A DNA stretch of 63,272 nt, the filler included, from Basidiobolus ranarum (taxonomy: Eukaryota), in the NCBI GenBank assembly GCA_040143965.1. It is 5 parts of 5 records of this genome, joined end to end, with 100 filler letters (N's around TTAATTAATTAA, not from the genome) between each part and the next. Parts side by side here need not be neighbours in the genome. Positions count along the whole stretch, not along the records: positions 12,698 to 25,287 come from JASJQH010000531.1; 4 more parts are not named here. The stretch is one strand, 5' to 3'. Positions within the stretch are counted from its first letter, which is position 1, and each line of letters opens with the position of its first letter. Shown here piece by piece: positions 7,402-50,739 of this stretch. Under the pieces are notes generated by a model that saw nothing but the letters and a program-made list of their open reading frames with translations, was not told where the DNA came from and searched no databases. Made by a program: the position numbers and the translations under genes.

Positions 7402-8235
7402 GTTGGTAATATGTTCAGGTGGGTGGGGAATGATAGATTAGCAGTAATATGCAGAGGAAGATAACACTTCGTAAATAATAATAAATATTCAGTGAAGGAA
7501 AGCTAATAAGGTGGAAGTGACAGAACAGTTGAGGTAAGATGAGGTAATGAGCTGAGAATATATAGTATCTTACTAATTGAAGATCCAATGTAATTCTGAG
7601 GAAAATTTGAATAATCCACTTGGTTCTCACATATGATGCAACATCATGTCGCGTCCTAAAAAGTCCTAGTGTTTTTACATTCATTACAAATTATCATTAA
7701 TCAGAAATCACTCTACTGATTGACTTCAACTCATTTGCAGGATAGTGACGCATTAACGTGGCGCAGTGATTTTGCATATTGGATGAGTTTAAAATAATAA
7801 GGCTAAGCAATGAATGATTCCAAGTTGATAAGTTGGAGAGTTTCATATTATGTGATAGAAATTTATTCATTCTGTAGCTTTCAAAATCGGCGTTATACTA
7901 GAAAGAACTTCCAGTAGAAAGCGTGGTTTTTATCTTATCTTTAATCATATATAACCCTAAGCCAATTTGTATTCAGGAAAATTCATCATTGCGTAGTGGT
8001 GTGATCTATTCCTGATCTTTTTTTCGTCAATTTTGAATACCATAGCAATTTGCAGTAGCGTAATTAGAGTACGTCATCCGTAAGGTAAGGTTAAGAGGCT
8101 TTCAGTGGAGCGTAATATAGTAGTTAGTTTACCAAGATCAGAGTAGGCATTCATCTACAGCTCTCCTCAAGATCAAGTCATTTATAACACAAACCTCACG
8201 TAAAATTCTAGTACTTAGTTCAATTGCTATAGAAA

Positions 8236-10044
8236 ATGTCTGACGGTAGATTGGAAAAAATGGAGAAAGACTACAGTGATGTAGTTGATGTACAACTCCC
8301 AGAAGCTGAGCAACTTGCTAAGGTAAATATATGCTTACCTCGTAGAATGCATAACTCTTTCTTCAAGGGGTACTTATTCGGTTTTTTCAGTAAACTAATT
8401 GTCGTCGTTATATTTTTTATACTTAAGAATGGAGAACTCCGTAAAGCTTTAGAACAACTTCTTTCTCTCGAGAAACAAACCAGAACGGTAAATACTCACC
8501 TTTATGCTTTATATATTGCTGATACTCAATCTCCCATTTAACTAGGCTGGGGATCTTGCTTCTACCACACGTATTCTCACCGGTGTTGTTAAGATCTGCT
8601 ATGAAGCCCAAGATTGGAAGACTCTCAACGAGCATGTTGTTTTGCTATCCAAAAAGCATGGTCAATTGAAGCAGGTTGGTCGGGTTTCCTTTCAAATGAG
8701 TTCCAAGTATGTTTTCAATAACCTATTTCCCTACATTAATAGGCTATCACCAAAATGGTTCAAGAAGCTATGTCATATTTAGACAAGACACCCGATATGC
8801 CAACTAAACTCGAGTTAATTGACACCTTGAGAACTGTTACTGAAGGCAAAGTATGTGCAATTTTAACATACGCATATATTACTACAATGCTTAACTCCAT
8901 CCTTGTATAGATTTATGTGGAAATTGAGAAAGCCCGCTTAACTCGTATGCTCTCCAAGATAAATGAGGATGAAGGCAAGATTGCCGAGGCTGCCGATATA
9001 TTACAAGAACTCCAGGTAGTTCCTCATCGGTTAATATAACATTATGACACATAGATGTTGACTTGTTGGAAATCATTAGGTGGAGACTTTCGGCTCAATG
9101 GAGAAAAGAGAAAAGACTGACTTTATTTTGGAGCAAATGAGATTGTGCTTGGCTAAGAAAGATTTCATCAGAACCCAACTCATTAGTCGCAAGATCAGCA
9201 CCAAGTTCTTCAATGAACCAGAACAGGCTGATTTGAAGCTTCGCTATTATAACCTTATGATCGAATACGCTCTTCATGAAGGAGAATACCTCAACATCTG
9301 CAAATATTACAGACAGATCTACGAAACCGAGTCAATCAAGGCTGACGAGGCCAAATGGAAAGAGGTTAGTATTTTATATTGACCGATTCTTTCATTCGCA
9401 CGACATTTAATTGTGATGTTTAGATTCTTCAAAACGTGGTATTATTCATTGTGTTGTCACCATACGATAACGAGCAATCAGATTTAATCAACCGCATTGC
9501 CGAGGATACCAACCTTGTCAAAATCCCACTTTACAGAGAGCTCCTCAAAAGCTTTATCACCATTGAGCTAATGAGATGGCCCAGAGTGGAGGAGATCTAT
9601 GGCCCTACTCTCAAGGCCACCTCCATCTTCAGTCAAAAAGAAGGTGGCAGCGACCGCTGGAATGATCTCCACAAGCGTGTTATTGAGCATGTAAGTCTTT
9701 CTCCCCATTTACTTGGCCATGCGACTTGCTGACCCTTTTTTGTTTAGAATATTCGAGTTATCGCCAAATACTACACCCGCATCACAACCAAGCGTTTGAC
9801 ACAGTTACTGGATTTGTCTGATCGTGAAACTGAAGAGTTCCTTTCCAAGTTGGTTGTGTCCAAGACCATTTATGCCAGAATTGACCGCCCTGCCGGGATT
9901 ATTAGCTTCTCTGCACCCAAGGATCCCAATCAAGTGCTTAATGACTGGTCCCACGATGTCAACTCCCTACTTGGCTTAATTGAGAAGACTACTCATTTGA
10001 TCAATAAGGAAGAGATGATCCATAAGATTACCAAAGCATTGTAA
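8236..10044 (+). CDS. RPN5: 26S proteasome lid subunit Rpn5/PSMD12 (multi-exon)
   Basis: Exons encode [34 protein letters not shown] and a PCI C-terminus [20 protein letters not shown]. Confidence 0.95.
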
Positions 10045-10385: not shown

Positions 10386-12000
10386 TTAACAAACACCTGC
10401 GGTTTTATCTGGTAGTTGATTACCACTTGGCTCATGCTCTCCAGCATGGTTTGTTCGGTGGAAAGTGACCCGAGCGATGTTTCTTAGTTTGTTCCAATGT
10501 TGCTTTGCCGAGGGTCTTTGTAATTTAATGGTTTCGTGATCTAGCTTGTCAAGATGATGAACAGCTGCCATCAAATCCTTGATCAATAGCTCGCATCTTG
10601 AGCGGGAGAAGTCTTCACGAATAACGACTCGACATAATTTGACGCTTTGGGCATTTGGTGCCATAGTATAGGCGGGAATGATCCATCCACGTTCCCGTAA
10701 TTTGGCTGCTATGTCAAACTCATCATAATGACGCTTGCTATTCAATTTGAATGCTACAAGAGGAAGTCCAAAACCATTTCCTTCACTTAGGATTTTGAAA
10801 TAACCAGTGTCTACCAGAGCCTCAGCCAAATGATCAGCAGTCCGTGTCAGATTAGCCATAATCGAACGGAATCCTTTTTTACCCAATCGAATTAATATGT
10901 AATATTGAGCAATTACGTGTGCAGCCCCTTTACTGAAGTTTAGGGTGAACGAAGCTTGGTCAGCACCGAGGTAGTTAATGTTAAAGATCAGATCTTTTGG
11001 CAAGAACTCAGGACTACGCCAAATGCACCATCCAATACCAGCGTAGCAAAGTCCATACTTATGACCACTGGCGTTGATAGAAGCAACCAAAGGTAAACGG
11101 AAATCCCATTCCAACTCTGGTTTAACAAATGGCGCTACAAAGCCACCAGAGGCAGCATCAACATGGATGGGGACGTTCAAGCCTAATTCTTGGTTCTTTT
11201 TTTCCAACAAATCATTCAAAGTCTTGACATCCTCATAATGCCCGGTATATGTGGAGCCTAGAATGGCAGCAACACCGATTGTGTTCTCATCAACGAGCTC
11301 GACAGCCTCTTCCGGAGTCATAACATAACAGTCCTCAGTACAATAAACGTAACGAGGTTCAATCTCAAGATATCTGACAGCTTTTTCCCAGCACACTTGA
11401 ACATTGGCACCCATTACTAGATTAGGCTGACTGGCATCTTTTCCCTCTTCTTTCCGCTTTAGTTGCCAGCGACGCTTCATGGCTAAACAAGCCAATATGA
11501 TAGCCTCGGAGGAACCAATGGTGGAGCAACCAAGAGACTCTTGAGTTGGATTATCCATTGGTGCATTGAATAGACGGGCAATCATACTAACACAGCGATT
11601 TTGGATCTCACATGTCATAGGATATTCTTCGTAGTCGATAAAATTCTTACTCATATTCTCGGCCATTAGTTTTTCTACCTCTTCTTCCATGTAAGTAGTT
11701 ACAAAACTGGCCAAATTAAGCACCGGGTTTCCATCAAGTGCTAGCTCATCTTTAATCAGTTTATAGGCAACCTTGGGAGGCATTTCGTCACTTGGCATGT
11801 CAAATCTTGGGATGTCTTGAGCAGCCCAATGGCTGCCATAAACTGTGGTAGAAGTGACGTCCTCTTCATGAATTTTGCTGGAGGGGTCATCAGATTTCTC
11901 GAGGCGAGCTGAATAAAACAAGTTAGGCCGGCATTTGAATTGTCGAATGAAAATAAAGAAGGCCTTTACCATCAGAAACTGCGGTGGCAAGAAAAACCAT
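10386..12000 (-). CDS. GAD1: Glutamate decarboxylase (PLP-dependent, group II)
   Basis: Motifs LNLASFVTT, HVDAASGGF and SGHKYG (PLP lysine). True start is MVFLAT at 12000, followed by a short intron. Confidence 0.95.
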
Positions 12001-15593: not shown

Positions 15594-17303
15594 ATCATTA
15601 TTCATCATTTATTGAGTTAATCAGTACTCCCCTTTACCATCCTATTACTTCACCCGTAACGTCGTTTTGTTCCTATTCTCTTCTGCACACAAACCTTATC
15701 ATTCATAAATTGTTCTTCATTTTTCTGAATTCAATAGAATCAATTGTCATTCGGTGATTTTATGTTTTACTCTTCTTTAAATTGTAATCTTTACATTCAT
15801 GGTCTTGTTCAATGTCAAATATATATATGAATATCTATTTATTTCCCATCTGCAGTTAGTATAGAGCCTCTATATCACATGTCAGATGTTTATTAAAAGT
15901 ATAGATTTTATTTGCCAGAGATTTAAGCCATGGAAAGCACGTGACGACGATGGTACCTATTATAGTATGTTATATCAATAGATGCCAATTGACTTTTTCA
16001 TGACAATGCAGCAGTTAGATATGGAGATTCAAGGCCTCAATACGGGCTTGCAAGGAAATATGTTTGAGATCCCCATTTCTAGCTGCTGTAGTAAACCAAA
16101 GCAGCTACCCAAGAGAAAGGTCGGTAGTTAAAATAAGGTTAGACATGCTTTTCTCAAAGCTAGGTAACTGTTAATGGAGCAAAACATCGAGATATTCACC
16201 AACGAACAGATGTCGAGGTGCCAAGGTACCACACAAATATATCTTCACGGGCGATTCTACAGGCTCCACCCATATCAACAAACGAGAAGGCGGATACTGG
16301 ACTCTAGAGAGACCTAGATTACTAGCTGAGTAGGGTATTCTTAGGGTCAGCACTTTATGAAGCAGTAATTTGATATTGAAAAGGATTTATTAACAGTAGG
16401 TAAGAAAGCTGGGGGGGGGGGAGTCGCACATAATTTCGGTTTATGACTGACTAACCCGTAGCTTAAACTTGTACCCTCAGCCACCCCGACGGATCTGATA
16501 ACTAATGCAAATACTCTCCTGGTTAGTGTAGTTGAATGTATTTGTCCTAAAGCTAAAGATTCAGGACAGCAAATGAAGTTACTAAGCGCCTTTTAGAGAC
16601 GATTTTCGTGTAGAAGGTCAACTGCCAGTGTTTAGTAAATATTTAGCTTGAGGAGATCAGGTTTGGTGCCAACCTGACGCAATCAGATGTCACATTTTCG
16701 CATGGTTATTTATCGATTTTATTCAGTCATTTTGGTGGGAACATCGCATTTGACCTTAATATTGATTGCTGTTGTATCTCTAGCTTAAGGTGCCAATCCG
16801 ATTTGTGTCTAGATGACTCCCAGATTTGTCAAGATAATGTCCAAGAATTCAGTTTTGACAAGCAACTAGAGTTGTTAATGTAGATACTCTAACCAATTGA
16901 GGCAATTGCCAGTCCTGATGGTCGAATAGTGTAGTCCCATGGTGTGTTGATCGATAAATACTAGCTGTACAGTTTGGTAGTAACAAAATCATGGTGAATT
17001 AAATAAATCAGTGTGATGTTCGGAATTCTAAGATGGAAATTTTGAACCATATCCTAGTGTCTAGAGTGGCATAGTATAGTATTCCAATAGTTTAAATGAA
17101 AATCAGTCATCAGTAATGGATCAAATGAAGGCAGCGTAAGCATCGTTCGTCACTGCGAAACATTAATACGTAAACCTTTCAGAAATTAAATATGATCCAA
17201 GGTTTATAGATGCTACTTCAGTGTATTTGTCATCACAGTGATTTCGCGCTTCTACTCCTTACCTCAATATAAAGAACTGCTAGCTCGTTGACCTTCTATC
17301 AAA

Positions 17304-18899
17304 ATGACAAGTGTTGAAAAGAACCCGGAAATGCAACAGAACGAGATGTCGGAGGAGCTGAGTGCTGATATTTTAAACTCCAGCCGAGGAGAGATTCAAA
17401 ACCGAACACGGTTATTGGAAAATGATATTAAAGTAACGTATACCAAATTGCATTCTTATGTACAATGTGTTCATCCTCTCTACAGGTCATGAAAAGTGAG
17501 CAGATGCGTCTGCAACACGAGCAAACTGCTATGATGGAGCATATTAGAGAGAACAAAGAGAAAATCAAAATGAACAAGCAACTGCCGTATCTCGTTGGAA
17601 ATGTTGTAGAGGTATGTCTTAGTATCGTATTTAATAAATAATTACCACTGTTTACTAACAAAGCGTTGCAGATTATGGATATGAATCCAGATGATGAACC
17701 CGAAGAAGAGGGTGCCAATATCGACTTGGATGCTCAGCGTAAGGGGAAGTGCGCTGTAGTCAAAACCTCCACTCGACAAACTATTTTTCTGCCGTTGATA
17801 GGCTTGGTTGATAGTGATCAATTAAAGCCGAGTGATTTAATTGGAATGAATAAGGATAGTTACTTAGTATTGGATACGCTGCCTGCAGAGTTGGTTCATT
17901 TCACATTATAATGGCTGAACATTCCTGTTCTAACATTTTCATCCAGATATGATTCTCGTGTCAAGGCCATGGAAGTTGATGAGAAGCCCACTGAGGATTA
18001 CACAGATATCGGTGGATTGGACAAACAAATTGAGGAACTTGTTGAGGCCATTGTACTTCCTATGACACATGCAGATCGGTTCAAGAACCTCGGGATTACG
18101 CCCCCTAAAGGTTCTTTGATTTTTGCTTTTTATTGAAATGTCATTTGCTTACTTACCACATCTTGATCTATTCTAGGTGTTCTAATGTATGGGCCTCCTG
18201 GTACAGGGAAGACGTTGCTTGCTAGAGCGTGCGCTGCTCAAACCAACTCAACCTACTTGAAACTTGCGGGTCCTCAGCTAGTTCAGGTAAGCGATAATAT
18301 GTGGTTTAAACAGTAGTGATATACAATCCCAATTCGACTCAAATTTGACTTAGATGTTTATCGGTGATGGTGCCAAACTTGTCCGCGATGCGTTTGATTT
18401 AGCTAAAGAAAAGGCGCCTGCTATCATCTTCATTGATGAATTAGATGCTATTGGTACTAAACGTTTTGATAGTGAGAAAAGTGGCGATCGAGAAGTACAA
18501 AGAACCATGTTGGAGCTACTCAATCAACTTGACGGATTCAATAGCGATGAAAGAATTAAAGTAATAGCCGCTACAAACCGAATCGATATTCTTGATCCTG
18601 CTTTGTTGCGTTCAGGTCGTCTTGATCGTAAAATTGAATTCCCACTTCCTACTGAGGAGGCGCGTGCTCGAATTTTACAAATTCATTCCCGAAAGATGAC
18701 AGTCTCTTCGGATGTCAATTTTGAAGAGCTTGCACGATGCTGTGACGAATTCAATGGTGCACAGTGTAAAGCAGTGTGTGTGGAAGCTGGTATGCTTGCG
18801 CTTCGCAGAAGTGCCTCAGCACTAAGCCATGAGGACTTTATGGATGGTATCCAGGAGGTAATGGCAAAAAAGAAGACCTCTTTAAAATATTTTGCCTAA
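17304..18899 (+). CDS. RPT5: 26S proteasome AAA-ATPase Rpt5/PSMC3 (multi-exon)
   Basis: Motifs [40 protein letters not shown] and [16 protein letters not shown]. Confidence 0.96.
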
Positions 18900-19519: not shown

Positions 19520-19828
19520 TTATAAAATGACGCACCCATAATAACGAATTTTGCGCGGAGGCGCTTGGGGAGGGATTGGATTATTCACGGGAGTTGTGAT
19601 TTGAGTCAAATTCATTTGAGAATCTGCTGCAGGGATTATCTGTTCGGACTCCAAGTTTTCAGCTTTGACAGTAGTCAGGGCGAACGAGGGGAACAGATTA
19701 GTACTTAGTTTATCTACAGGAAGCATTGATGTTGAGAGATCTTCAGAGTTAGTGGGAAATGATTGTGTGGTAGGTATCAAAACGGAGGCTACACTAAAGC
19801 AAGCGGAGATCTCAGTAGAAATTTTCAT
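19520..19828 (-). CDS. Small CaaX protein 1 (102 aa, ..PPRKIRYYGCVIL*); candidate prenylated peptide/pheromone precursor
   Basis: Intronless ORF that is paralogous to 20462-20734 at both termini; C-terminal CaaX box CVIL. Confidence 0.75.
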   Translation of the reverse strand: MKISTEISACFSVASVLIPTTQSFPTNSEDLSTSMLPVDKLSTNLFPSFALTTVKAENLESEQIIPAADSQMNLTQITTPVNNPIPPQAPPRKIRYYGCVIL

Positions 19829-20461
19829 TTTCTCAGATGGGTAGTTACAATTTGAATTCCAACTTAAAGCTCTCTTTATACGATTATAATCCTTTTCAAA
19901 AAAAGCCCACTTTATCTAAAAACGGTCAGCACTTCTTTCAATACTGTTCCAGAAGGATAACAGGGTCGTTGAAGGAGAAATCTTTAGCAAAGAAATGTAG
20001 GCTGCCTTGTGTTAACCAATCCAAATATTTAATACCGCCCTTTTGGTTGTGTTGAGATTCTTCAAAATCTGTATTAAAGAGTCCTGATGCCATGGACTTT
20101 GTTTGTATTGGATTATTTTGTTGAATGAATCACATGTACCGTTGGCGAGCTTCATTCAAAAACATGTTTGTGGTGAATGGTTGTTCCGGCTATTTAACAA
20201 TACTTCTGTGGGGATACAATTCACAGAAAACCCCATCGCGAAGTTTCGCGGGATTACCAAATGCATATAACACGTTATCTGTGAACCGTGTTCCACATGG
20301 GGTCAAAGAGAATTGACATCTACTTAGTAGTTTATTGTAGGCGTGTGGTAAATTTAAACATTCACACTGCTGAGAACAATTGAAAAATGTATAGGAGTTA
20401 CAATACAAACTTGCAAGTTTATTAATAATAAATAATGATTATACGGTTAATTCTAATGGAG

Positions 20462-20734
20462 TCAACAAACAACACAACCATAGTATCTAATTCCGCGTTT
20501 GGCCCGTACTCTAGGTACTGTTTTGATAATGTCAAACCCCTCCCTGGTTAGATTTTCGCTGTGACATCGAGCCACTCGCGTAGATATCCTTGGCAACAGC
20601 TCAGGTTTAGTAGTAGCCACTGGTATACTGAGGGGCAACAGAGGATCTTCAGATGTTAGGGGATACGGTTGTGTGGTAGACACAAAAATTGAGGCAACGC
20701 TTAAGCATGTCAAAGCTTCACCTATGACTTTCAT
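20462..20734 (-). CDS. Small CaaX protein 2 (90 aa, ..RAKRGIRYYGCVVC*); candidate prenylated peptide/pheromone precursor
   Basis: Shares MK...E...C.SVAS....TTQ..P..SED, ENL and IRYYGCV with the 19520-19828 ORF; CaaX box CVVC. Confidence 0.75.
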   Translation of the reverse strand: MKVIGEALTCLSVASIFVSTTQPYPLTSEDPLLPLSIPVATTKPELLPRISTRVARCHSENLTREGFDIIKTVPRVRAKRGIRYYGCVVC

Positions 20735-21290
20735 TATTTAACTGTCGTGTGAGTGTATGTGGGGTCCTATGCAGAGAAAAAGGATACAACACGTTCTTTT
20801 ATCCTCTACTGATTCTTAACTTCCTCAACAATTGGAAGGGTGTTGATTAGATGGGGTGGTCGTACCTGACCCTACAAAAGCAGAGACTGTTTAGATACAG
20901 GCCATCTGTTCCATTTGATGCTTGATTCATTAATTTGGCCACACCGCTCTACAAAGGGACTCGATTCAATTCACAGGTTCTCTATACTTGACCTTGTTAC
21001 TTTCCATAAGTAAATGCCACTTCTGCTTGAATCCTAAATTGCTCTTCGTATATCATCCGCACGCTTGAAAATATTAGCACACTTTCTTGGTTGATCGTCG
21101 TTGTTAGCTATATAGGATCACCTTTTTTGGTTTGAAATTGTCAAATTCAGATCCTTGATATTAAGTGCATTGAGGGAGGTTTTAATGTGATCTATATTGT
21201 GTGACACAAAATGCGATCATTACTGATGTAGTGTAGAGCTTATTATTGCTTAGATATTTGAAGACAATTCCTGATTGTCAGTATCAATAG

Positions 21291-22802
21291 GACTGCAGTG
21301 TTCCGCACCTTTAAACACTGTATTAACCAGTCGAGCTTAGCGAGTGAGTGGATCGTTATCTCATTCCTCATTTTGTTATATACCAGGGTCCACTTGAAAG
21401 CCTGCTCGATTCCTTGCACAAAATATACTTCCAGCACGAACATACCTATTTTGTTGTTGATTTGTTTGACTTTTGAGTTCTTGGGTACTTATCCGAAACG
21501 CCACCTCTCTAATCAAATCTCTCGTATATTACTTGATGAAACAGATTTGAAGGGCCAAGTCAATATCTTAAAGTATTACTTGACTAACACCAATGTATCA
21601 TTGATCCCCATATTCATTAATATGAGTATATTAAGCAGCTTCCAGTGAATGATTTTGCCTTAGATCTTGAGCTCATTTTCAGTATTCATTCACTTTCCAA
21701 AGGGTTACTATTACTGGAATAGACAAAAGTTTCAAGATATTACATATCAAATGAATGCACCATTGATGTTCACCCTGTTGACTGACGATTTACCTTTGCT
21801 GCAGCCTAAACATATGCAAAGAAAGTAGGATTGCATCATCCTTAATGGTAAACCGAGTGAATTCCTTCATACTTTCACTAACACTTGGAGTTGCAGAAAA
21901 AACACAACGCCTTGCAGGTAAGAACGTGCAAAAGTATGAGGTTCACAGAGGATTTAAATGATTCATATCGCCACATATACTAGAGATCCATTTGTTTCTT
22001 CGAGCTCATTAAAAAAATGTCACTTGAAAACTCCACGGCAGCAATACACAAGGACGATGATTGGTAAACATATTCGCTTGGTCAAAAGGGTACAACTATT
22101 TGCTAACCATAATTCAGTTCAGACGTTGAGGAGATCGACCAGTCATTTGGTGAGCTTTCAGTCGACGATATTGATTTTTGGAGTAGCCGGTTTATATCTC
22201 AATACCACTCCAACTCTACATATGATGAAGAAGTGGACTCAGATATCGAGCAGGACACTATTAGTAACTTCAAGTTCGATTTACTATTGGAGCGGGTTCT
22301 GAAAAATGACCCGCAAGAGGAACTGAGAAGTTGGATAGAATCCCCTGATTCTGAAGTGCCCCATGTGGATTTCGATGAATTACTGGACGTTATTTTGACC
22401 GGAAGCGACAATCAAGTAGAGAGATGTATTAAGACCGTTGAAAGGTAACTTTCTTAACGAGTGCAATTTTCTAGTTGGATTATTGACCTGCTATATTTGT
22501 AGAGCCCACAACTTGATGAGGAGTCAGGCCTTTCGACAATTCTAGCCACTCCAGATATTATGACTCCAAGCTTGCTTGCTGTTAATGGAGAAGTCGGGAT
22601 TTTTACGCAGTTACTATTATTGGATTAACGGATATTTATCACTGAGAACCTCTGGTGTTATTCAGGCATAGACTTTAAGAAATCAATCGAATTTGCTATT
22701 AAATCACCGAGTATTTTCATTACTTTGGATATGTTTCGGTTCAAAATGAAAGTATATGTTGAACAATGCTGTATTCTTGTATATGATATGGATGAACCTT
22801 AA
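21291..22802 (+). CDS. Multi-exon hypothetical protein (start not determined)
   Basis: A series of open segments bounded by plausible GT/AG sites: ..ILLLIYLKGQVNILKYY.., an acidic central exon DVEEIDQSF..DFDELLDVIL, and a final GIDFKKSIEFAIKSP..MDEP*. Confidence 0.4.
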
Positions 22803-24703
22803 TACAAACTCAACATCTGCAACATCAATAAGTCTTATCATTGGACTGAAGTAGTATTGTGAGTTCACACTTCATAACTGTGGCAAATAGTAGAGAATGC
22901 GGAGTAGACAGGAAATCGGACACTTGGTGCCAATTTCTACGACTTGATCTGCATACAAAACATGCGGATTATTATAACTAGTAGAGGATGACATTCAAAT
23001 CCATGGAGCTGAGGTAGCCAACATCTTTAATCTCTGTTCCTTAGACTAAATCTTTGAAATCCAATACGGATTAAGCAGTCACACGTTGCTTAATTCAATC
23101 CGATATATCGTTGGTTGATTGCACGAATCGTTATTGTCCACTTGAGAAGTGCCTTTGAATGGCTTACATTAGTTATCTCCAGTGGATGAGTTGCTAGCTT
23201 ACAGTAATAATTCTATAGAGATTATATATATGTGGGTGTAGGTGCATGATGAAGCTTGACTTGAGAGATAGAACCCGAAAAGCATAGCTGTCGTTTTTTC
23301 TTGATACAAGACAAAGGCTATACCGAGTTTCATTTCAAAATTGATTACTGTTTCTACCACCACACAAGTAACATAGTAAGTACTTTTACTCAACTTTCAC
23401 TTTTACAAGTTAATTGGATTACTATTGATTGGAATGAAGGATAGTTTGGAAATATGTCTGATTCTTACGGACTTTAATGGTGCGAATTTCGTGACTCACC
23501 CGAATTTCCGTAGTACTTCGGTAACCGTTCAAGTCAACGATCACATGATTAAACAGAGAAAAGACTAGATGTGTCAGTAGTCATCAGGACTCTATGATTG
23601 GAGAAAGGTAACAGAAAGTATTTTGATTTTCCAAGGTGTCCATCTAATGATACTCCAATCATATAACATGTATGTAGATTTGAGTGATTCTTTGTTATTA
23701 GGGTTCTACTCGGTTATTTGATTTATAGGAAGAATAATTTTCACTAGAAATGATGAATTCATAAATGACTACAAAAATAATCTAATATCAAAATAAGTAT
23801 ATCCTAAAATAAAATACTATCGACATTTATCGAAATTGTTAACATATATCCCATGTCTAATCACCACTTTCCTGATAATTTTATCAATTCAAATAATCTA
23901 CTGTAACGCTACGTTATACTGTATGATTGGAATTACCCAGCATCTGTTCTTATGCAAGTGGATTACGAGATAACAATCTTTTGTCGCTCCATACTTTGTG
24001 TAGTTCACTCAAACTTTGACACTTGGCCCTCAAGCATATCCTCAAGACGATAACGTAACGATATGGATATCTCAATGAGTACTTGGGATACCTAGTAATA
24101 ACCAAGTCAGTCAGAGATTATATCAAGGATTCATAGCAAATATCTCAAAAAGTTTCACTTTCGCCAAAAATAAGAGTTAAATAATGGTAAAAATAGGTAG
24201 ATCCTCTCAGTTGAGTTCTCTACAAAACTTGAGCAAGTATTGAATATATTTGGATTTATTTATGTATTAAATTATATATACTTGGGACTATGACGTTACG
24301 CTTCTAAGAATTTATCTTTGGGTAGTTCCTTTCTATAAAGATTTCTTCAATTACTGGATATCTCTTCTACCATCGACCATAATGTACTTTCTATAGAATA
24401 AAAATCGATTTTGATTTCGCATTTAATTCTCTCCTCAATACATCTTCACATTGCAACATATACACATCTATACTAATTCATTGGAAGTGTAAAATGGTTT
24501 TTTTTAGGAATTATTAAAAGCATTTGTCTTTTATGAATACTATTTTCGCTCTTATAGTTCAACTTATTAGAGTCAAAGAAAAACTGACATAAACGTGTAT
24601 TGGTGTACTATTTGAAATCCTTATTTGTCTTGCCTTGCCCTGCTTTGCATACTTTCATTCGTCTTATACTGTAAAGAACAGTAGTAATTGAGCAATATAC
24701 ATT

Positions 24704-25287
24704 TTAGCGATGAACTTTTTCTCCTTGATCTTTAATCCATATACAACTCCATCCTTGGGGGGTGAATTCCTCACCAGAATCCCAACGCCGCCAGGCCTCC
24801 AAATAGCCTTTCTCTAAGTTTCGTACCCATCGAGGTGTATCGAATAATGGTGAATGGTCTCGCTTAAGGAATAGATCACGTCGGAGATCCATTAGAATTC
24901 CTCGGCCAACTCTATACACTGATGCTGGAGATGGTTGGTGAACAGTCTCGTCCATAAATCCAAATGCTTGGTGGGTTGGTTGCGATGGAGCCTCGTCATC
25001 CACTACAAATTCATAGCTTAGATCCTGAGCATATTTAACCGCTATATCTTCAAACTCCCATTCAGATGAGGCCACCATTTTGTCTCCATGCCCAGTAGCA
25101 TATGCTATACTAGCAGCAACTCGAGAGCAAAGCTTGTGCCGATGACGAGGGAAGGTAAGAATTGGTGTACCTGACCATAGAATATCACATCCAGTTGTAT
25201 GTCCGTTGCAGTCCGGTGTATCAAGGAACACGTCAGCCACACGTCCACGATGAATATGGCCACTTTTGGGTGCTACATCGGTGAAAA
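24704..25287 (-). CDS. OGT: O-GlcNAc transferase (GT41) catalytic C-terminus; 5' truncated by contig end
   Basis: RGRVADVFLDTPDCNGHTTGCDILWSGTP..SRVAAS..SPLFDT..NLEKGY. Confidence 0.9.
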
Positions 25288-25387
25288 NNNNNNNNNNNNN
25301 NNNNNNNNNNNNNNNNNNNNNNNNNNNNNNNTTAATTAATTAANNNNNNNNNNNNNNNNNNNNNNNNNNNNNNNNNNNNNNNNNNNN
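25288..25387. other. Artificial contig spacer
   Basis: N44-TTAATTAATTAA-N44. Confidence 0.99.
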
Positions 25388-29708: not shown

Positions 29709-32108
29709 CTATGTAGATTCTACAATATTCTGAACGTCTTTCGCTATCATCTTGAATGGTGACAACAGTGTTTCGACTAAAAAGAATGAAGTCACACCAT
29801 TTAAAGCTTGCAAAGCTGCGGTGTCACTAATATCTGTCAGCCAAGTAATACAATCCACATAGCAATTATACCGGTACACAACTTCTTTATCAATAGTTTC
29901 TAAGGATATCGCTGGGTAGAGCCTTGGTACTAGTACTGGAACAACCGCTTCTAAGGCACTGAGTAAGGCTTTGCTGGAGCACACATGACAGTCCATTGCT
30001 TGAACACAATGAACGAGCGTAAACAATGACCACATTAGTTCCAACAGGTTTTGGATGGACAAAGCCTTGTTCGAGCTGCACAACAGAAGGACTTTCGTTT
30101 TTTCGCGTAATTGTGTATCAGGACTAGTCTCGCATGCTCTTAATAGGAAAGTAGACACCAGCTCATCTATATTGAAGTCATCCACTTCACCTTGCACATC
30201 CCATTTATCGTTGTGAAAGAGTGTACCCGAGCGTGGCACGAATATCTTCATGTCGTATATTTCCCCTAGACTGCCGCATTCGAAATAATGACGTTGTTTG
30301 GTATTCCAATATATATCCATCACTTGCAAAAGTGTGGTAAACCGCGGGTTGAGTGCATAGTATACACAGCAGCTCATCTCGTAGCGTACAGCATACAGAT
30401 GTATAGCACAGGGCTTGTCGCATCTAGTCAGTAATCTAACACTGTCGCATGTTGCTTTCGCATACATGACCAAATGGTTGATATCTGATGCCATCACCAA
30501 TGCCGCTTCATTCATCATCTCTTTGCAAGAGATGTCACTCACAAGATCTATTATATCGTCATATCGATAACTGGTTAGATAGCAGTTCATACTGAAGTGA
30601 CAAGTATTAATGCACATCAGCGATCCCACATCTGTGTCCGTGCTTTTACCACCAGCTCTCAGATACCAGTCAATTGTCAATAGCGCATGCATTGCCACAT
30701 CACTTTGCCTCATCCTGCGATATTCACTTGGAGTAATCAGCCCGTCCGTATTCGCATGACCAGTATCAAAGCGTTTACCTTGAGAATTGTTATTGTATGC
30801 CATGCACATAAACGAGAAACCTAGCACCGCATACGTATATGAGTTTTCCGCAGTTAAAGTTGGAATAGCCAACGCGCCAGACTGAGAGCAGAAATCAGAT
30901 ACATACTTGCTATTTGTTTCATCTAGGCTACCGATATAGTCAGCGGCAAGTGTAAACATGGCCATATCTCCAGCCATGAGTATATGCGCATTGGTTGTGT
31001 AGTAACAGGATAGCAGTCGTATAATCATGCACCATGCTGTTTTAATCGCGGATGAGAAGTCAGTTGTGCGCCCTTCCTCACCCTTGATGACCCCTTGGCA
31101 ATACTTCTCACCGAGTTTCTCAACCAAGTACTCTGACTCGTGACTTCTCATGGCCTCGAAGTGCATATTTTCGGCCAGTGCCGCCATCTGCTTTGAGCGG
31201 GAGTGCCGGAAGTTGACTGGCTGTAGCCTGGCCGGAGCAACCGTCTCATACATGCGGATCAAAGATTCGTCCAGTACAGCTCGATGGGCAGTATTCTTGG
31301 CATTATGTAACTTATTGGATAGGGCGACAAAAGCACTACCATAGAAACCATTGTTCATCCCGTCAAGGTCTCCGCTTCGAATACTTTTCATCACCTGGTT
31401 GATCCAGGATACGCGTTCTGATAGGGATTCCATGTTGAAATGTGGGCATGGTACATCGACATCAGTCAATATTCCTTCATCGCACAATATGATGGCAGTC
31501 TGAATCTTAGTTATAAAGTCAGCAGTACTGCAATGGGAACATGCCTGTAAACCGTGTAAATTGCACGCATGCCGATCCACTCTCACACTTTTAAGTTTCT
31601 TCGAGGGGAGCAGGCAGAGGTCCAGATATTTGTTACTAGCATTGTGATCAATGTGGAACAGGTCGTCATCGGCAGCCATAAAGCATTTCGCAACGCTAGG
31701 AGATACATCCTTTTCCGAGTTTTGCTTTACCAGGATGATGTCAGCAATGTCTTCGCGCGATAGGACGATTCGTATATCTCCATTTCCAGTAGAGGAGTAC
31801 AGGCCAGTTGAGTCTAGTTGCGAGTTATTTAATGGAAGTTTAGGACCGGTTTTGAGGTAATTACTAATCAAGCTTCTTAAGGGACTTGAGTCGATGTGCC
31901 CGCTGCCATCAGCACTCCCCACAGGCATTGGTGATTTGGTAAATGGTGTCTTGAGTATTTCTGATTGTGCCAAATATTTCCGTAGGTGACGATCGTGCGC
32001 GGAACAGATACGACACTCGCGACAAACAGGGTTCCTTTGTAGCTTATCCGGTGTACCTTCCTGCCCTACAGAGCACTTGTGATGTGACAGCTTCTGGAAA
32101 TCGTACAT
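29709..32108 (-). CDS. 799-aa intronless protein; putative divergent class I terpene-synthase-fold domain with Cys-rich extensions
   Basis: Long clean ORF with PSEYRRMRQSD, YDDIIDLVSDxxxxExxN and YYALNPRF in terpene-synthase-like order and spacing. The function is inferred. Confidence 0.6.
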   Translation of the reverse strand: MYDFQKLSHHKCSVGQEGTPDKLQRNPVCRECRICSAHDRHLRKYLAQSEILKTPFTKSPMPVGSADGSGHIDSSPLRSLISNYLKTGPKLPLNNSQLDSTGLYSSTGNGDIRIVLSREDIADIILVKQNSEKDVSPSVAKCFMAADDDLFHIDHNASNKYLDLCLLPSKKLKSVRVDRHACNLHGLQACSHCSTADFITKIQTAIILCDEGILTDVDVPCPHFNMESLSERVSWINQVMKSIRSGDLDGMNNGFYGSAFVALSNKLHNAKNTAHRAVLDESLIRMYETVAPARLQPVNFRHSRSKQMAALAENMHFEAMRSHESEYLVEKLGEKYCQGVIKGEEGRTTDFSSAIKTAWCMIIRLLSCYYTTNAHILMAGDMAMFTLAADYIGSLDETNSKYVSDFCSQSGALAIPTLTAENSYTYAVLGFSFMCMAYNNNSQGKRFDTGHANTDGLITPSEYRRMRQSDVAMHALLTIDWYLRAGGKSTDTDVGSLMCINTCHFSMNCYLTSYRYDDIIDLVSDISCKEMMNEAALVMASDINHLVMYAKATCDSVRLLTRCDKPCAIHLYAVRYEMSCCVYYALNPRFTTLLQVMDIYWNTKQRHYFECGSLGEIYDMKIFVPRSGTLFHNDKWDVQGEVDDFNIDELVSTFLLRACETSPDTQLREKTKVLLLCSSNKALSIQNLLELMWSLFTLVHCVQAMDCHVCSSKALLSALEAVVPVLVPRLYPAISLETIDKEVVYRYNCYVDCITWLTDISDTAALQALNGVTSFFLVETLLSPFKMIAKDVQNIVEST

Positions 32109-33649
32109 TGGCCGGAGTGAGCGGTCTTAATAGTAGATCGAAATAGAGGAAAAATGAATAAATATGAAGATCTGAACAAAGTGTCCGTGCCGAGGTGGCG
32201 GCTCTACTTATAATGCTCCCGTACCCAAAAAATCTATTTTATGAGGGGAAACCTGGGCATATTAGAAGGTTGTTTCCACGACCAAAGGACAAATTTCACA
32301 GAAAGTGCATATTATTGTTTCAACATAAGATGAAACATGTATGTATCTTTGACATTATGTAGGCTAAACATTATTAGTAATCACGGTGGAAATTACCAGC
32401 GCACGAATCATATTATACTCTTACCATGGATATAGGGGACCATAAGGCTCATACATAGTATACGGTATCCAAATTATTGATACTACGTTGTTTTCCGATG
32501 AAGTTTCAAGCATTTTGAAAAATATGACCAAACATATTCGCTAACAGTATTGTAGCCAGGCCTCTTATAATTGTAGTGTTTTGGCACAATATTAATTAAT
32601 TAAATGTACTTTGCTTATCATTCATTCTATGTCCACGTCAAAACCCCTATATCTTATCTTAATTATTATATTTTATGAATTAACTCAAAGTGTTTAAAAT
32701 ATGTTTACATGCACTAACTTTCAACTCTTTTTCTTATTTTGGCTGCATAATGGATATTAACTAAAATTAAAAAACAGCAACCTGCTGCAATCACTGGTAG
32801 TCTGCAATTATGTAGCATAGTTTGCATCCGCTAACCGCTGATACTACTACGGTGGCAGCAATGTTCATCCTCGGAATGTAATGAAATGTGGAAATGTTAG
32901 GTTCCCAATTTGCAGAACGTGAGTAGGAATCTACACTTTCACATGACGTATTGATCACCAGTAGATATTCTTGGCTTATGTGAAAGTGATGGCTTGGCAC
33001 AAAGTAAACTGATAATAATGAAAGCGCTGACTACAAGGGTATTCTGCTAACTTGAAAACTCTTGTAACTTGCTCTTCCAAGTACTCATGTTGATTCCATT
33101 ATGCCAACAATATCCACAACAGCATAGCACTTGTGAAAGGTTAGAATACTTAGCTTGCAACATGCTTTAGCTGTGTAATATTGGTATTTAACTGCTGGTA
33201 ATTAAGTCCTCTTTATGTCACAAATTTCCTTTATTTAACTTAACAATGTTGGTGAAGAAGCTATTGCACTATTAGGAGCTTTAATTTTTCTTTTGAATCA
33301 CACGTATACATAAATGTCTGTAAATAAAAATTACAATTTAACTTTTGAAAAACTCCTAAAAAGTGTGAGGAGTTCCTCAAATAGGACGATTTACTAAGTA
33401 GGTTTAGAGCTTCAACTGACTCAACTTAATGACTAATTCATATGCCCATTGGCCATTTGCTTTGCTACACCAATCAAAGAGTTTGCATTTGTCAACAGTT
33501 GGTTCATATTGTTTAACTATAGTAAACAAACTTTTAGATCATATCCTACTTCAGCTGAACTATAAGACCTGTGCCCGTGTATATCAGCATAATGTATGGT
33601 TATTTACTTCATAGAAGTAGAGAGAATCTATTTAGAGTAGCTCGATCTG

Positions 33650-42277: not shown

Positions 42278-43309
42278 TCATCTAAACAAATGTAGTCCCC
42301 GGCTTCGAGGGCCGACTTCTTGGGGTTGGGTTGGTATACTGGATGGTTGCGACTTCATTAATTCTTCGATCCAAGCTTTGCGAGTGGATACTCTAGCAAA
42401 TCCCTACAATAAAACATCCCTAATAAGGAGGGTGATGAAATGTGATGAAAGGATAATTGTTTTTACCGAAGGAATCCCAGCCTCACAATCTCGAGTGAAA
42501 CTGGTCACTCCTACTAAAACAGGAACCCCCTTTCCATTTATTTGAAACAGTGGACCACCACTGTCACCAAAGCATATATCTAAGTAACAAATTCATTAGT
42601 AAAACAGTTATCAAATATTTCTTGACCAATAATTACTTTCGTCCCCCACGTCAGTACCGGCGCAAAGCTCAACCCGGGAATCAAAACCCCCCAAGTAAGA
42701 CTCGCATTTTTTAGATGGGAATATTTGTAAATTGGCCTGTTGAAGTGTTTCCGCCATCTTTTGTTCGTTCAATCTACCCCAACCTAGGGTGCGTACCAGA
42801 GCACCAGGTACTGAGGCACTTCCGTCATCTAGTATTATTTGCGAGTCGTATGGAGAAGACTTTTCTAACTTTAGTACGGCATCTTGAAATGATTCACAGT
42901 TAGTGTCGTATTATGACAAATAGAAAAGCTACTATATACAAGTACAATCATTAAGTAGTTTATTACGATCCCATTCAGGATGTATGTTCATGGTTCGAAT
43001 ACCAGTCACAAATCCGTTTTCCTCACGAGCAGAACGGGTCCGATTATGACGATGAAGTTGAACCGTAACCACCTGTGGGGATGTCGCCATATCTACACAG
43101 TGAGCAGCAGTCAAGATAGTATCCCGATCTAACAAAGTTCCACCACAAAAGATAGCCTGTGTTTGGGAAGTGCGAACATAAACCATTGCCATCCAAGGAT
43201 AACTAAACGATGGATACACCTCAGACCCACCAAAAATACCAGAATTAGGACGAGCAAAGGGAAATGATTCACAACACAAAACCAGCATCATCAGTAGCCA
43301 AATATGCAT
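42278..43309 (-). CDS. Secreted trypsin-like S1A serine protease (multi-exon)
   Basis: Signal peptide, IFGG mature start, FCGGTL, LTAAHC, LLND and DICFGDSGGP. Confidence 0.9.
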
Positions 43310-43923
43310 AGTATGAACCTAGTATCAATGAAATACCGTCTAACTGGCCTAAATTTATATACTCTTTCGAAGGAGTGGCTGATACAAGTTCTTGTATATG
43401 CATTGCACCTATTATGAATATTGGGAGTATCCAAGAAACCACAAAGGATCTTCAATGACGTCGATACGTTGCATGCTCCAAAATGTTGATCATTGTGCAA
43501 GCAAACATTGATAGTACATATACACCTGCCTTAGATTAATTGCTGTTATGAACTAAATAATGTCGCATTTGTCCATTATTTATGAAAGTAGACTAACGAT
43601 CCCAACTATATGTATGCTATTGTTGTTTTAGCGTAATCAACTTTAATAGCTAGGGATTTGCGTAGGCATTAACACTCCCAGTTCACTTTAAATGCGTACG
43701 TTCCTTTGAATTTCTAGAGCCCCTTGCGTATATTCGCACAAGCCATTATTTTACTACATTGGCGTAACTCAGAATACGTTTATTGGACTAAACTTTTTCA
43801 TTATCTGAATGAAAAGTATGATACAAGAAAACTAGCATGGATAAGAGCTGACAATTAAATTAACTCTAATATACATGGGCGAAAGGCTCAGTAGGTAACG
43901 GTAGCCGTTAGACAACCTTAGTT

Positions 43924-47942: not shown

Positions 47943-48680
47943 TTAAATATGTCCCTTCTTGTTCGTAGCAAAGAGCATACGAATGGCAAAGACTTGAAGA
48001 GAAGCAATACCAACAATAAGAACGCATTCAGAGAGTGAGTACCAGAAAATTCGTCCTTCAGTAGACTCTACAGTGGCAAAGTTTCTGTTTTCACGTGTGC
48101 GGAAATATTTCTGCATACGGTTGATGTTATGTAAAGAACCACCGATACGCGTGATAGAATCCTCAGTGGGATTAGTGTGATGATCTTCCAATGCTTGTCT
48201 GTGAGGTAACATGGCCTTCACTTCATTTTCAACGCTGATGTCAAAGTCTACCAATTTTTCGGCAAAAGTAGACATTCCATTGCTAAAGCAGAAGGAATAT
48301 TCTCCTACTTCATTACCGGTAAATACCATATCACCTTGACGTTCCTTTTCACCTTTAGTAACTAAACGTCCTTTAGGGTCTGATACTTCATAATCGATAT
48401 CAAAGTTACCACCAGTTTGTACCTATCAATTAGAAGAGAAACATCGTTATAACTCACGAAAGCATTGTACAAATTTTGAGAAAAAAACTGGTCTTTAACT
48501 TACTGCAAAATAAAAAGAAATTTTTTTGCCGGCGGCATCTACCCAAGTATAAAAGCAAGCTTTATCATTGGCAGGAACCCAATAAGTCAAAGCGGTTGCT
48601 TGAACTGTCGGAGTATATGTGGACAATAAAAGAGTGATATAAACACTCAATAGAGTCGCAAAAGCAGTGAGACTCTTCAT
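47943..48680 (-). CDS. p24/emp24/GOLD family cargo receptor (gamma type, Erp3/TMED-like)
   Basis: Signal peptide, ACFY..FYFAV|QTGGNFDIDY, YSFCFSNGMSTFAEKLVDF and YFRTRENRN..TVESTE; one intron. Confidence 0.9.
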
Positions 48681-49126
48681 AGTAAAAATATTGCTTGGTT
48701 TTTCGAAATCAAGCTTCGATTTTCCTAAAGTAACCTAACAGAGAGAAAAAAACAATAGCAAAGCTAAGATGGCAGGTATATCGTTCTAAGCGTGAGCTTA
48801 ACTCCGATGAACAAGCTTGAGCACTTACAATTACGTCCGTTCTTTTGCATCTACTCAAGCATTGATCTCTTACATGGGTCAATTGGATTGGTTCATTTTC
48901 AATCAATTGTTTAGTATGGCGAGTCACGTGCTATTTGAAATGTTTTTAATCAGTATTGACAAAGTTGATTTAATGTAGACAGAAACAACCCAATTAGTCA
49001 TCATTATTTTCCTGAATTGTATGGTGATGAAACAAGTTCGATCGGGACAATTCTTTATTGATTTCATCGAAAAAGTTGAACCATACTTCACTTGTTTCTT
49101 GATAACTAAATGAGACATTTTTGTAC

Positions 49127-50005: not shown

Positions 50006-50639
50006 TTAAAGCATAGCTTGGCCTGCGGCTTTTCCGTCTTTGCCATCTTTACCATCCTTTCCGTCTTTGCCATCTTTACCGTCCTTTCCGTCTTTTCCTG
50101 GTGCTCCGTCCTTGCCGTCTTTACCGTCTTTGCCGTTCAAACCATCCTTACCATCTTTACCATCTTTTCCGTCCTTTCCGTTCAAACCATCTTTACCATT
50201 GAGGCCATCCTTTCCATTCTTGCCATCAGGTCCTGGAACTGGAACGAAGATTGGTACTGGTGATGGCTCTGGCTTCTTGTAAGCCCTAGCAACAATGTGG
50301 GCATCCTCATCAGTTGACTGGAGCATAGCTTGACCTGCGGCTTTCCCGTCCTTGCCATCTTTACCATCCTTTCCATCTTTGCCATCTTTACCGTCCTTTC
50401 CGTCTTTTCCTGGTGCTCCGTCCTTGCCATCTTTACCATCTTTGCCGTTCAAGCCGTCTTTGCCATTGAGACCATCCTTTCCATTCTTGCCATCAGGACC
50501 TGGAACTGGAACGAAGATTGGTACTGGTGATGGCTCTGGCTTCTTATAGACCGCTCTGGCAATGAGGTGAGAATCCTCATCTGTTGACTGGAGCATAGCT
50601 TGACCCGCAGCTTTCCCGTCCTTGCCATCTTTACCATCC
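50006..50639 (-). CDS. Modular collagen-like repeat protein (3' part; 5' truncated by gap)
   Basis: Repeated module STDEDxHxxAR-A(V)YKKPEPSPVPIFVPVPGP-(G-X-Y, mostly GKD)n-GKAAGQAML; unit lengths 270 and 312 nt. Confidence 0.8.
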
Positions 50640-50739
50640 NNNNNNNNNNNNNNNNNNNNNNNNNNNNNNNNNNNNNNNNNNNNTTAATTAATTAANNNNN
50701 NNNNNNNNNNNNNNNNNNNNNNNNNNNNNNNNNNNNNNN
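50640..50739. other. Artificial contig spacer
   Basis: N44-TTAATTAATTAA-N44. Confidence 0.99.

Follow-up and report, generated by a model that had tools for sequence, protein, structure and literature searches.

An orphan tandem pair of probable peptide-precursor genes with contradictory sorting signals in Basidiobolus ranarum

Introduction

What do two short neighboring genes of the fungus Basidiobolus ranarum encode, if one end of each protein resembles that of a secreted precursor and the other that of a prenylated one? The genes, here called open reading frame (ORF) A and ORF B, lie on the minus strand between positions 19520 and 20734 of the stretch of DNA that was analyzed (the window: 63,272 nucleotides including filler, joined from five parts of GenBank assembly GCA_040143965.1 that need not be neighbors in the genome; the part with A and B is from JASJQH010000531.1). 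A preliminary description of this DNA had read them as precursors of a lipopeptide pheromone of the a-factor type. We report here that A and B are an orphan, selected peptide-precursor pair carrying contradictory sorting signals. Our tentative explanation, held with slightly less than even confidence, is that they are an old tandem duplicate of a lineage-restricted B. ranarum gene and that each encodes an intrinsically disordered prepropeptide.

B. ranarum is a culturable frog-gut fungus that is self-fertile (homothallic). The Mucorales use trisporoids, and we know of no peptide pheromone or hormone that has been established in zygomycete-grade fungi.

Results and Discussion

Gene organization and sequence conservation

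The ORF listing gave two intronless frames on the same strand, separated by 633 bp. Their parts, all on the minus strand, are as follows.

19520..19828, minus strand: ORF A, intronless coding sequence of 102 residues plus stop, C-terminus ...PPRKIRYYGCVIL
20462..20734, minus strand: ORF B, intronless coding sequence of 90 residues plus stop, C-terminus ...RAKRGIRYYGCVVC; paralogue of ORF A
19829..20461, minus strand: spacer of 633 bp from the stop of ORF B to the start of ORF A, serving as 3' flank of B and 5' flank of A
19739..19828, minus strand: ORF A codons 1-30, conserved N-terminal block with MK, one Glu, 22 uncharged residues and a 13-residue hydrophobic core; signal-peptide-like
20645..20734, minus strand: ORF B codons 1-30, conserved N-terminal block, signal-peptide-like as in A
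19604..19612, minus strand: NLT, residues 73-75 of ORF A, its sole N-X-S/T sequon, 29 residues from the last residue
20546..20554, minus strand: NLT, residues 61-63 of ORF B, its sole N-X-S/T sequon, 29 residues from the last residue
19523..19555, minus strand: last 11 codons of ORF A, RKIRYYGCVIL, with the invariant Arg, the core IRYYGCV and the formal CaaX (Cys-aliphatic-aliphatic-X) box CVIL
20465..20497, minus strand: last 11 codons of ORF B, RGIRYYGCVVC following RA-K, with the invariant Arg in an R-A-K-R context, the core IRYYGCV and the formal CaaX box CVVC

Comparison of the two proteins by BLASTP gave 35 identities over 101 positions (E 7e-14), and their identity in a MAFFT alignment was 39%. 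Residues 1-30 were 50% identical by tblastn. Invariant columns in this N-terminal part of the MAFFT alignment were M1, K2, E6, C10, S-V-A-S at 12-15, T-T-Q at 20-22, P25 and S-E-D at 28-30, and at the C-terminal end R-x-I-R-Y-Y-G-C-V was invariant. The chains differ in length by 12 residues and vary in the middle. When the DNA was aligned with 200-bp flanks, the similarity between A and B ran from the ATG to the stop codon, and the flanks were unalignable. The spacer contains an AATAAA 39 nt past the stop of ORF B and a TATAAA at 19875-19880, 52 nt ahead of the ATG of ORF A. No promoter motif common to the regions upstream of A and B was detected beyond the level of shuffled sequences (18 shared 8-mers against a mean of 12.4 and a maximum of 27 in 200 shuffles). 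The window holds no third copy, the next tblastn match having an E of 0.19. A and B are the only ones with a Cys-aliphatic-aliphatic-X ending among the 86 ORFs of the window that start with ATG and code for at least 60 residues.

The preliminary description had noted the two frames with their lengths, the conserved ends around a freely diverging middle and the basic residues in front of a C-terminal core, and had taken these as the pattern of a precursor. All of this was borne out by the ORF listing, the alignments, the region-wise selection analysis that it had proposed and the lack of a predicted fold, the last two of which are described in the next section. It had also listed ENL as a shared motif. 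ENL does occur in both proteins (residues 57-59 in A and 60-62 in B) but it was not aligned by MAFFT, and the motif shared in the alignment is NLT.

Coding status and selection

Five of the seven codons for IRYYGCV differ between A and B, and all five differences are silent (CGT/AGA, TAT/TAC, GGG/GGT, TGC/TGT and GTC/GTT). Four further silent differences occur in the conserved N-terminal codons. Since the amino acids of IRYYGCV have been kept while five of the seven codons changed, both genes are real and under purifying selection, and we state with high confidence that A and B are genes. Nei-Gojobori counting between A and B gave proportions of nonsynonymous (pN) and synonymous (pS) differences of 0.30 and 0.53 for the N-terminal 30 codons. 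For the 49 aligned codons of the middle, pN was 0.61 and pS was 0.72, which is near-neutral. Strong selection is confined to the two ends of the proteins and the middle drifts almost freely. The synonymous sites are near saturation, from which it follows that the duplication is old.

Codon usage was evaluated by a log-odds score trained on 4520 codons from eleven long ORFs of the window, nine of them with Pfam-supported domains. For both genes the annotated frame had the highest score of all six frames (+0.203 for A and +0.025 for B), with the other frames at -0.109 or lower. The score of ORF A falls within the range of real genes and that of ORF B is marginal. ORF A has already been called as a gene in public protein collections, where an identical entry (P0001) is present. 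ORF B was absent from the protein collections searched and is probably a missed gene call.

Structure prediction gave no fold for either protein. The ESM Atlas model of A has a predicted local distance difference test score (pLDDT) of 0.30 and a predicted template modeling score (pTM) of 0.08, and the AlphaFold2 model of B has a mean pLDDT of 41.6 and is devoid of secondary structure, including helices. Both proteins are thus predicted to be unstructured.

Marks of the secretory route

The N-terminus of each protein consists of MK, four residues including one Glu, and a 22-residue uncharged run. The best 13-residue mean Kyte-Doolittle hydropathy in A and B was 2.01 and 2.02, respectively. Two other proteins encoded in the window provided a reference for this measure.

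42614-43318, minus strand: trypsin-like serine protease with a clear N-terminal signal peptide, used as hydropathy comparator
47946-48734, minus strand: p24/EMP24 cargo receptor with a clear N-terminal signal peptide, used as hydropathy comparator

These true signal peptides scored 2.35 for the protease and 2.22 for p24/EMP24. Among the proteins not expected to be secreted, six of the eight scored 1.0 or lower, and the membrane proteins HIG and PGAP2IP reached 1.67 and 1.87. The conserved N-terminus of A and B is signal-peptide-like, and the evidence leans toward a corresponding function, the point on which the choice of route turns, on the strength of this hydropathy comparison, which covers two true signal peptides and eight other proteins (two of them membrane proteins) from one window.

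Two further features of a secreted precursor lie downstream. NLT is the motif that A and B have in common by alignment within an otherwise drifting middle. In a post hoc test, a shared sequon at the same place was obtained in 0.2% of 20,000 composition-preserving shuffles of both middles. The invariant Arg, which lies 8 residues ahead of the Cys, follows a Lys in B (R-A-K-R/G, the slash marking the possible cleavage point) and a Pro in A (P-R/K, or alternatively R-K). The sequence R-A-K-R/G is a textbook site for Kex2 or furin. The pro-region of ORF A is rich in Pro (10.8%) and in Ser and Thr (together 22.5%), and the last 14 residues have a net charge of +3 in A and +4 in B.

Taken together, the signal-peptide-like end, what would be a lumenal sequon and the convertase-type site describe a classical prepropeptide that would release x-IRYYGCV-x-x, and this is the interpretation that we favor. 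Precursors of the a-type stay out of the secretory pathway and are matured in the cytoplasm without a signal peptide (PMC6339444). On that ground, a signal peptide and cytosolic prenylation are mutually exclusive.

A possible secreted single-copy propeptide

The explanation that we prefer, if somewhat short of an even bet, is a secreted, single-copy propeptide processed by a Kex2-type convertase. The hydrophobic conserved N-terminus would act as a signal peptide and direct the small protein to the endoplasmic reticulum, where the lone NLT sequon in the freely evolving pro-region would be N-glycosylated. A convertase of the Kex2/furin type would then cleave after the invariant Arg (R-A-K-R/G in B and P-R/K in A). 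The cleavage product would be a 10-residue C-terminal peptide, x-IRYYGCV-x-x, in one version per paralogue, and outside the cell this peptide would be a signal or another bioactive peptide. If the proteins are secreted in this way, the CaaX-like ending would be a coincidence of the core sequence.

Several observations weigh against this explanation. Both C-termini are formally perfect CaaX boxes that stop at the same place. By a rough estimate, a Cys at position -4 followed by two aliphatic residues arises by chance in about 0.2-0.5% of C-termini. The invariance ends one residue past the Cys, as if the last three residues were removed. Furthermore, the peptide released from A would contain one Cys and no partner for it, an uncommon feature among secreted peptides. 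The site in ORF A is P-R/K or R-K and not the canonical K-R, the peptide is present in a single copy and not repeated as in the repeat proteins that Kex2 processes (KEPs) or alpha-factor, and a Glu is located within the short n-region of the putative signal peptide. The modest number of proteins in the hydropathy comparison belongs on the same side.

A possible prenylated pheromone

The strongest competing explanation takes the CaaX end at face value. A and B would then be cytosolic precursors of a-factor-type lipopeptide pheromones, in which the Cys of CVIL or CVVC is prenylated, the aaX residues are removed and the Cys is carboxymethylated. The N-terminal part would be cut off near the basic residues, and a Ste6-like ATP-binding cassette (ABC) transporter would export ...IRYYGC-prenyl, to be sensed by a Ste3-like receptor at zygospore formation. 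We regard this as unlikely. A Leu at the last position of the box would direct geranylgeranylation and a Cys would direct farnesylation. In its fullest form, by which A and B would be the first known genes for ribosomally made, prenylated pheromones outside the Dikarya and would yield one farnesylated and one geranylgeranylated ...IRYYGC-prenyl peptide, the idea seems to us slightly less probable again.

The C-terminal sequences fit this route well. The box and the stop position have been kept in both proteins though the final two residues differ (IL in A and VC in B), and the invariant block comprises the residues up to and including the Cys plus one. The aromatic residues and Gly that adjoin the Cys loosely recall the Gly-Tyr motif preceding the CaaX box in a-factors of Sordariomycetes and Leotiomycetes (PMC10569646). 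As is usual for pheromone genes, A and B are multi-copy, intronless and poorly annotated, ORF B being the copy that is absent from the collections. Parts of the machinery have been found in early-diverging fungi: orthologues of STE3 and STE6 occur in the arbuscular mycorrhizal fungus Rhizophagus (Glomeromycotina), for which no peptide ligand is known (PMC3834313), and peptidases resembling type II CAAX prenyl endopeptidases (G05) were reported in all early-diverging fungi studied (PMC8778642). The placement of Basidiobolus is itself unsettled: according to a review, the genus is the sister group of Mucoromycota or else the first lineage to branch off within Zoopagomycota (PMC10386755).

Against the pheromone route stands the N-terminus, which is signal-peptide-like whereas a-type precursors avoid the secretory pathway (PMC6339444). 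Nor does this route have any use for the conserved sequon or the Kex2-type Arg. The usual limit for a-type precursors is below 100 residues, and ORF B (90 residues) and ORF A (102 residues) are at or just over it. The CaaX or CpaX box, although the only strict criterion for a pheromone, is "not exclusive", with 2-12 small CaaX proteins per ascomycete genome (PMC10569646), and alone it is unspecific. No Pfam pheromone family matched A or B, and no receptor, transporter or prenyl-processing protein was matched among the 95 ORF translations of the window that were scanned (see below). A Leu at the last position, as in ORF A, is to our knowledge without precedent among known pheromones.

The receptor record points in the same direction. 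In a study of 123 genomes by Merenyi et al., the STE3 homologous group was present in none of the 12 Zoopagomycota among the species listed, Basidiobolus not being one of them, in 28.6% of Mucoromycota and in 67-100% across the subphyla of Dikarya (PMC10406608, Supplementary Data 4a and 1). Published views differ on this point, however, and in an earlier preprint the family is described as "generally conserved across fungal species" (10.1101/546531).

Each of the two explanations writes off a coincidence of similar size: the secretory one has to dismiss the CaaX box, and the pheromone one the N-terminus, the sequon and the Arg. We favor the secretory route because secreted propeptides are far commoner than lipopeptide pheromones and because there is no record of the receptor family in the closest phylum that was sampled. 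That A and B are precursors of a short C-terminal peptide, by one route or the other, takes up about two thirds of our confidence. In a bolder variant, a hybrid precursor may use both the hydrophobic N-terminus and the CaaX end. Of the a-factor-type interpretation in the preliminary description there remain the real, selected paralogues, the precursor architecture and the formal CaaX box, and the interpretation is weakened by the signal-peptide-like character of the N-terminus, which it had not weighed, and by the sequon, the Kex2-type Arg, the length and the record of Ste3 in Zoopagomycota.

Explanations in which no short peptide is released

A and B might also be small proteins that are secreted and left uncut at the Arg, so that the product is the whole disordered, glycosylated chain of some 70-80 residues, for example a cell-wall or host-interaction factor. 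The signal-peptide-like N-terminus, the shared sequon and the Pro-, Ser- and Thr-rich pro-region would all suit such a protein. We consider it improbable, as selection bears chiefly on the last ~9 residues and the preceding Arg, and most of the chain is under almost no constraint and differs by 12 residues in length.

A little less probable still is that they are small prenylated proteins anchored at the cytosolic face of a membrane, where a polybasic stretch and the CaaX box would hold the full-length disordered protein and no peptide would be released. The combination of a polybasic stretch and a prenyl group is a classical plasma-membrane signal, and both proteins have the CaaX ending together with a positively charged C-terminal segment. 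However, neither contains a Pfam domain (G-gamma and GTPase included) or predicted structure, and an almost neutral middle would be surprising if the full-length protein were the active form. Such an anchor would also leave the signal-peptide-like N-terminus and the sequon unexplained.

That A and B are non-functional chance ORFs or decaying pseudogenes, for which one could cite the lack of a detected homologue and the marginal codon score of ORF B, is very improbable indeed, since the frames are intact, the start and stop codons are homologous, the five codon changes in IRYYGCV and the four in the N-terminal part are all silent, and the ends of the ORFs align while the flanks do not.

Comparison with known precursors

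In several respects A and B resemble the a-type precursors of Dikarya, such as S. cerevisiae a-factor, S. pombe M-factor and the basidiomycete Mfa/Phb proteins. They are small, intronless and multi-copy, and carry a single candidate C-terminal peptide that ends in Cys-aliphatic-aliphatic-X and in which aromatic residues and Gly adjoin the Cys. The genes of both groups are difficult to detect through homology and frequently lack annotation. Unlike a-type precursors, A and B possess a signal-peptide-like N-terminus, a conserved sequon and a Kex2-type Arg, and they have no sequence similarity to any known pheromone family in Pfam. Most a-type precursors are also shorter by a factor of two to four, and in one copy of the pair the last residue is Leu.

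With Kex2-processed propeptides, that is alpha-factor and the KEPs (Le Marquer 2019, PMC6339444; Umemura 2020, PMC7329392), A and B share the order of elements: a signal-peptide-like N-terminus, a variable pro-region with a sequon, a basic motif (K-R in B) and, last, a short peptide that is conserved. Basidiobolus is the genus richest in KEPs among 1461 fungal strains surveyed, B. meristosporus leading with 43 Kex2-processed repeat proteins (PMC7329392), a context that speaks for the secretory route. Unlike KEPs, for which the surveys require three or more repeats (PMC6339444), A and B have one copy of the peptide at the extreme C-terminus. The Ste13 signature of alpha-type pheromones (X-A or X-P after K-R) is missing, the Arg being followed by G-I or K-I. 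ORF A further differs from KEPs and alpha-factor in having P-R/R-K instead of K-R, and the released peptide would contain a free Cys. On account of the single copy and the missing Ste13 signature, A and B are not KEPs.

Plant precursors of C-terminal peptide hormones (CLE, PSK and RGF) have a signal peptide and a free middle, and only a conserved peptide of 5-15 residues, located at the C-terminus or close to it, is strongly selected. It is these single-copy hormone precursors that the architecture of A and B most resembles, by analogy; they belong to another kingdom and there is no homology. No plant-hormone-like C-terminal peptide family was described for zygomycete-grade fungi in the papers searched.

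Finally, the hypervariable tails of Ras and Rho proteins and the gamma subunits of G proteins also have basic residues directly before a CaaX box, and A and B are close to G-gamma in size. Unlike these proteins, A and B have no GTPase or G-gamma domain, no coiled coil or predicted structure, and a hydrophobic N-terminus. A G-gamma identity, suggested by the sequence E-D-P-L-L in B, was rejected as there was no Pfam match and the motif is wrongly placed.

Searches for relatives

A profile built from A and B retrieved three matches from 1.84 billion representative proteins, namely ORF A itself and two unrelated repeat proteins. A word-index search found no candidates for ORF B and only the protein itself for ORF A (one member, one contig). 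In the metagenomes of the Joint Genome Institute (JGI), 363 stretches fitted back-translated patterns and none was confirmed by tblastn. No Pfam family matched either protein at E<=0.01, including the pheromone, G-gamma and GTPase families. The ESM Atlas gave no usable feature match for A or B, and the structural matches of A all had template modeling (TM) scores below 0.5, obtained with a model of pLDDT 0.30, and carry no meaning. The lack of similarity to a described pheromone family in Pfam and in the 1.84-billion-protein profile search carries low weight, as such peptides seldom show homology. Because small ORFs often go uncalled and fungal genomes were not searched at the DNA level, the outcome means only that there is no annotated relative.

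Full-text literature searches returned no description of a peptide pheromone, whether of the CaaX type or another, from Basidiobolus or Zoopagomycota, and the string RYYGCV was in no paper of the literature searched. RYYG and YYGC were absent from three supplementary files of PMC7329392, which give accessions and types and may not tabulate the repeats themselves.

Organism and genomic neighborhood

The assignment of this DNA to a fungus outside the Dikarya, suspected in the preliminary description, was settled by an intronless glutamate decarboxylase gene at 10386..11972 of the window. Its product is 100% identical to a B. ranarum protein at NCBI and has 81% identity with the B. meristosporus CBS 931.73 enzyme, with the next matches, from Mucoromycota, at about 70%. 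The identity to the B. ranarum protein confirms the non-Dikarya placement.

A Pfam scan of 95 ORF translations of the window found no Ste3 receptor, ABC transporter, HMG or homeodomain protein, prenyltransferase, CaaX protease, DUF3328 protein or tyrosinase. It included 26 of the 62 ORFs of at least 60 residues at 13-30 kb and 50 of the 91 ORFs of at least 75 residues outside 13-29 kb; the ORFs omitted were mostly antisense to, or overlapping with, ORFs already assigned. Rfam, tRNA and tandem-repeat scans gave nothing. The genes around A and B are housekeeping genes, and the following features were recognized in the window.

8233-10041, plus strand: Rpn5/PSMD12-like gene
~15.2 kb: ribosomal protein L24e
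17292-18899, plus strand: proteasomal Rpt AAA ATPase, convergent with ORF A
24704-25339, minus strand: exon-sized ORF similar to O-GlcNAc transferase (glycosyltransferase family 41, E 2.5e-28), between the peptide genes and the P450
26480-28600, minus strand: multi-exon cytochrome P450; among solved structures, those of animal CYP17 come nearest (E 1.6e-19 for one exon)
53183-53443, plus strand: PCI-domain exon

The Rpn5/PSMD12-like gene, the Rpt gene and the PCI exon place three genes of the proteasome/PCI type within one 63-kb window. Upstream of ORF B, a stretch of ~4 kb (20735-24700) contains no Pfam-recognizable ORF, Rfam family, tRNA or tandem repeat, and the codon scores of the longest ORFs in it are below zero (-0.143 for 21958-22302, for example); such a long empty stretch is unusual for this window. 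Two further ORFs on the minus strand may be mentioned. That at 50006-50683 (225 residues) has collagen triple-helix repeats in two stretches (Pfam Collagen, E 3e-19), which are uncommon in a fungal genome. The other, at 29709-32126, is an uninterrupted ORF of 805 residues (799 from the first ATG) for which Pfam gave no family at E<=0.01; it has a positive codon score (+0.107), but it is a member of the set on which the score was trained.

No link between the P450 and the peptide genes was found. The idea that A and B give rise to a peptide made on ribosomes and modified after translation (RiPP), with the P450 cross-linking the Tyr-Tyr core, was considered and rejected. The P450 is of the generic eukaryotic microsomal type, as its best match in the PDB indicates, and it is located ~6 kb away along the window behind the O-GlcNAc-transferase gene. 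No DUF3328 protein, tyrosinase or methyltransferase was present among the scanned ORFs.

Significance

A and B form a species-restricted pair in which the only strongly selected part, as regards a possible product, is a C-terminal peptide of 7-10 residues. This restriction of selection to so short a segment makes the peptide a concrete candidate that can be synthesized and tested for both routes. The molecules to be expected are not the same: the secretory route would leave an intact 10-mer in the medium, and the pheromone route would yield a peptide with an S-prenyl-Cys methyl ester at its end. One of the two genes, ORF B, is missing from the public protein collections searched.

If A and B do encode secreted peptides of the Kex2 type, they would add a single-copy class that repeat-based KEP surveys miss by design. 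If the prenylated explanation is the true one, the orphan Ste3 and Ste6 orthologues seen in early-diverging fungi would gain a class of ligands, and the origin of a-factor-type signaling would be pushed below the Dikarya node.

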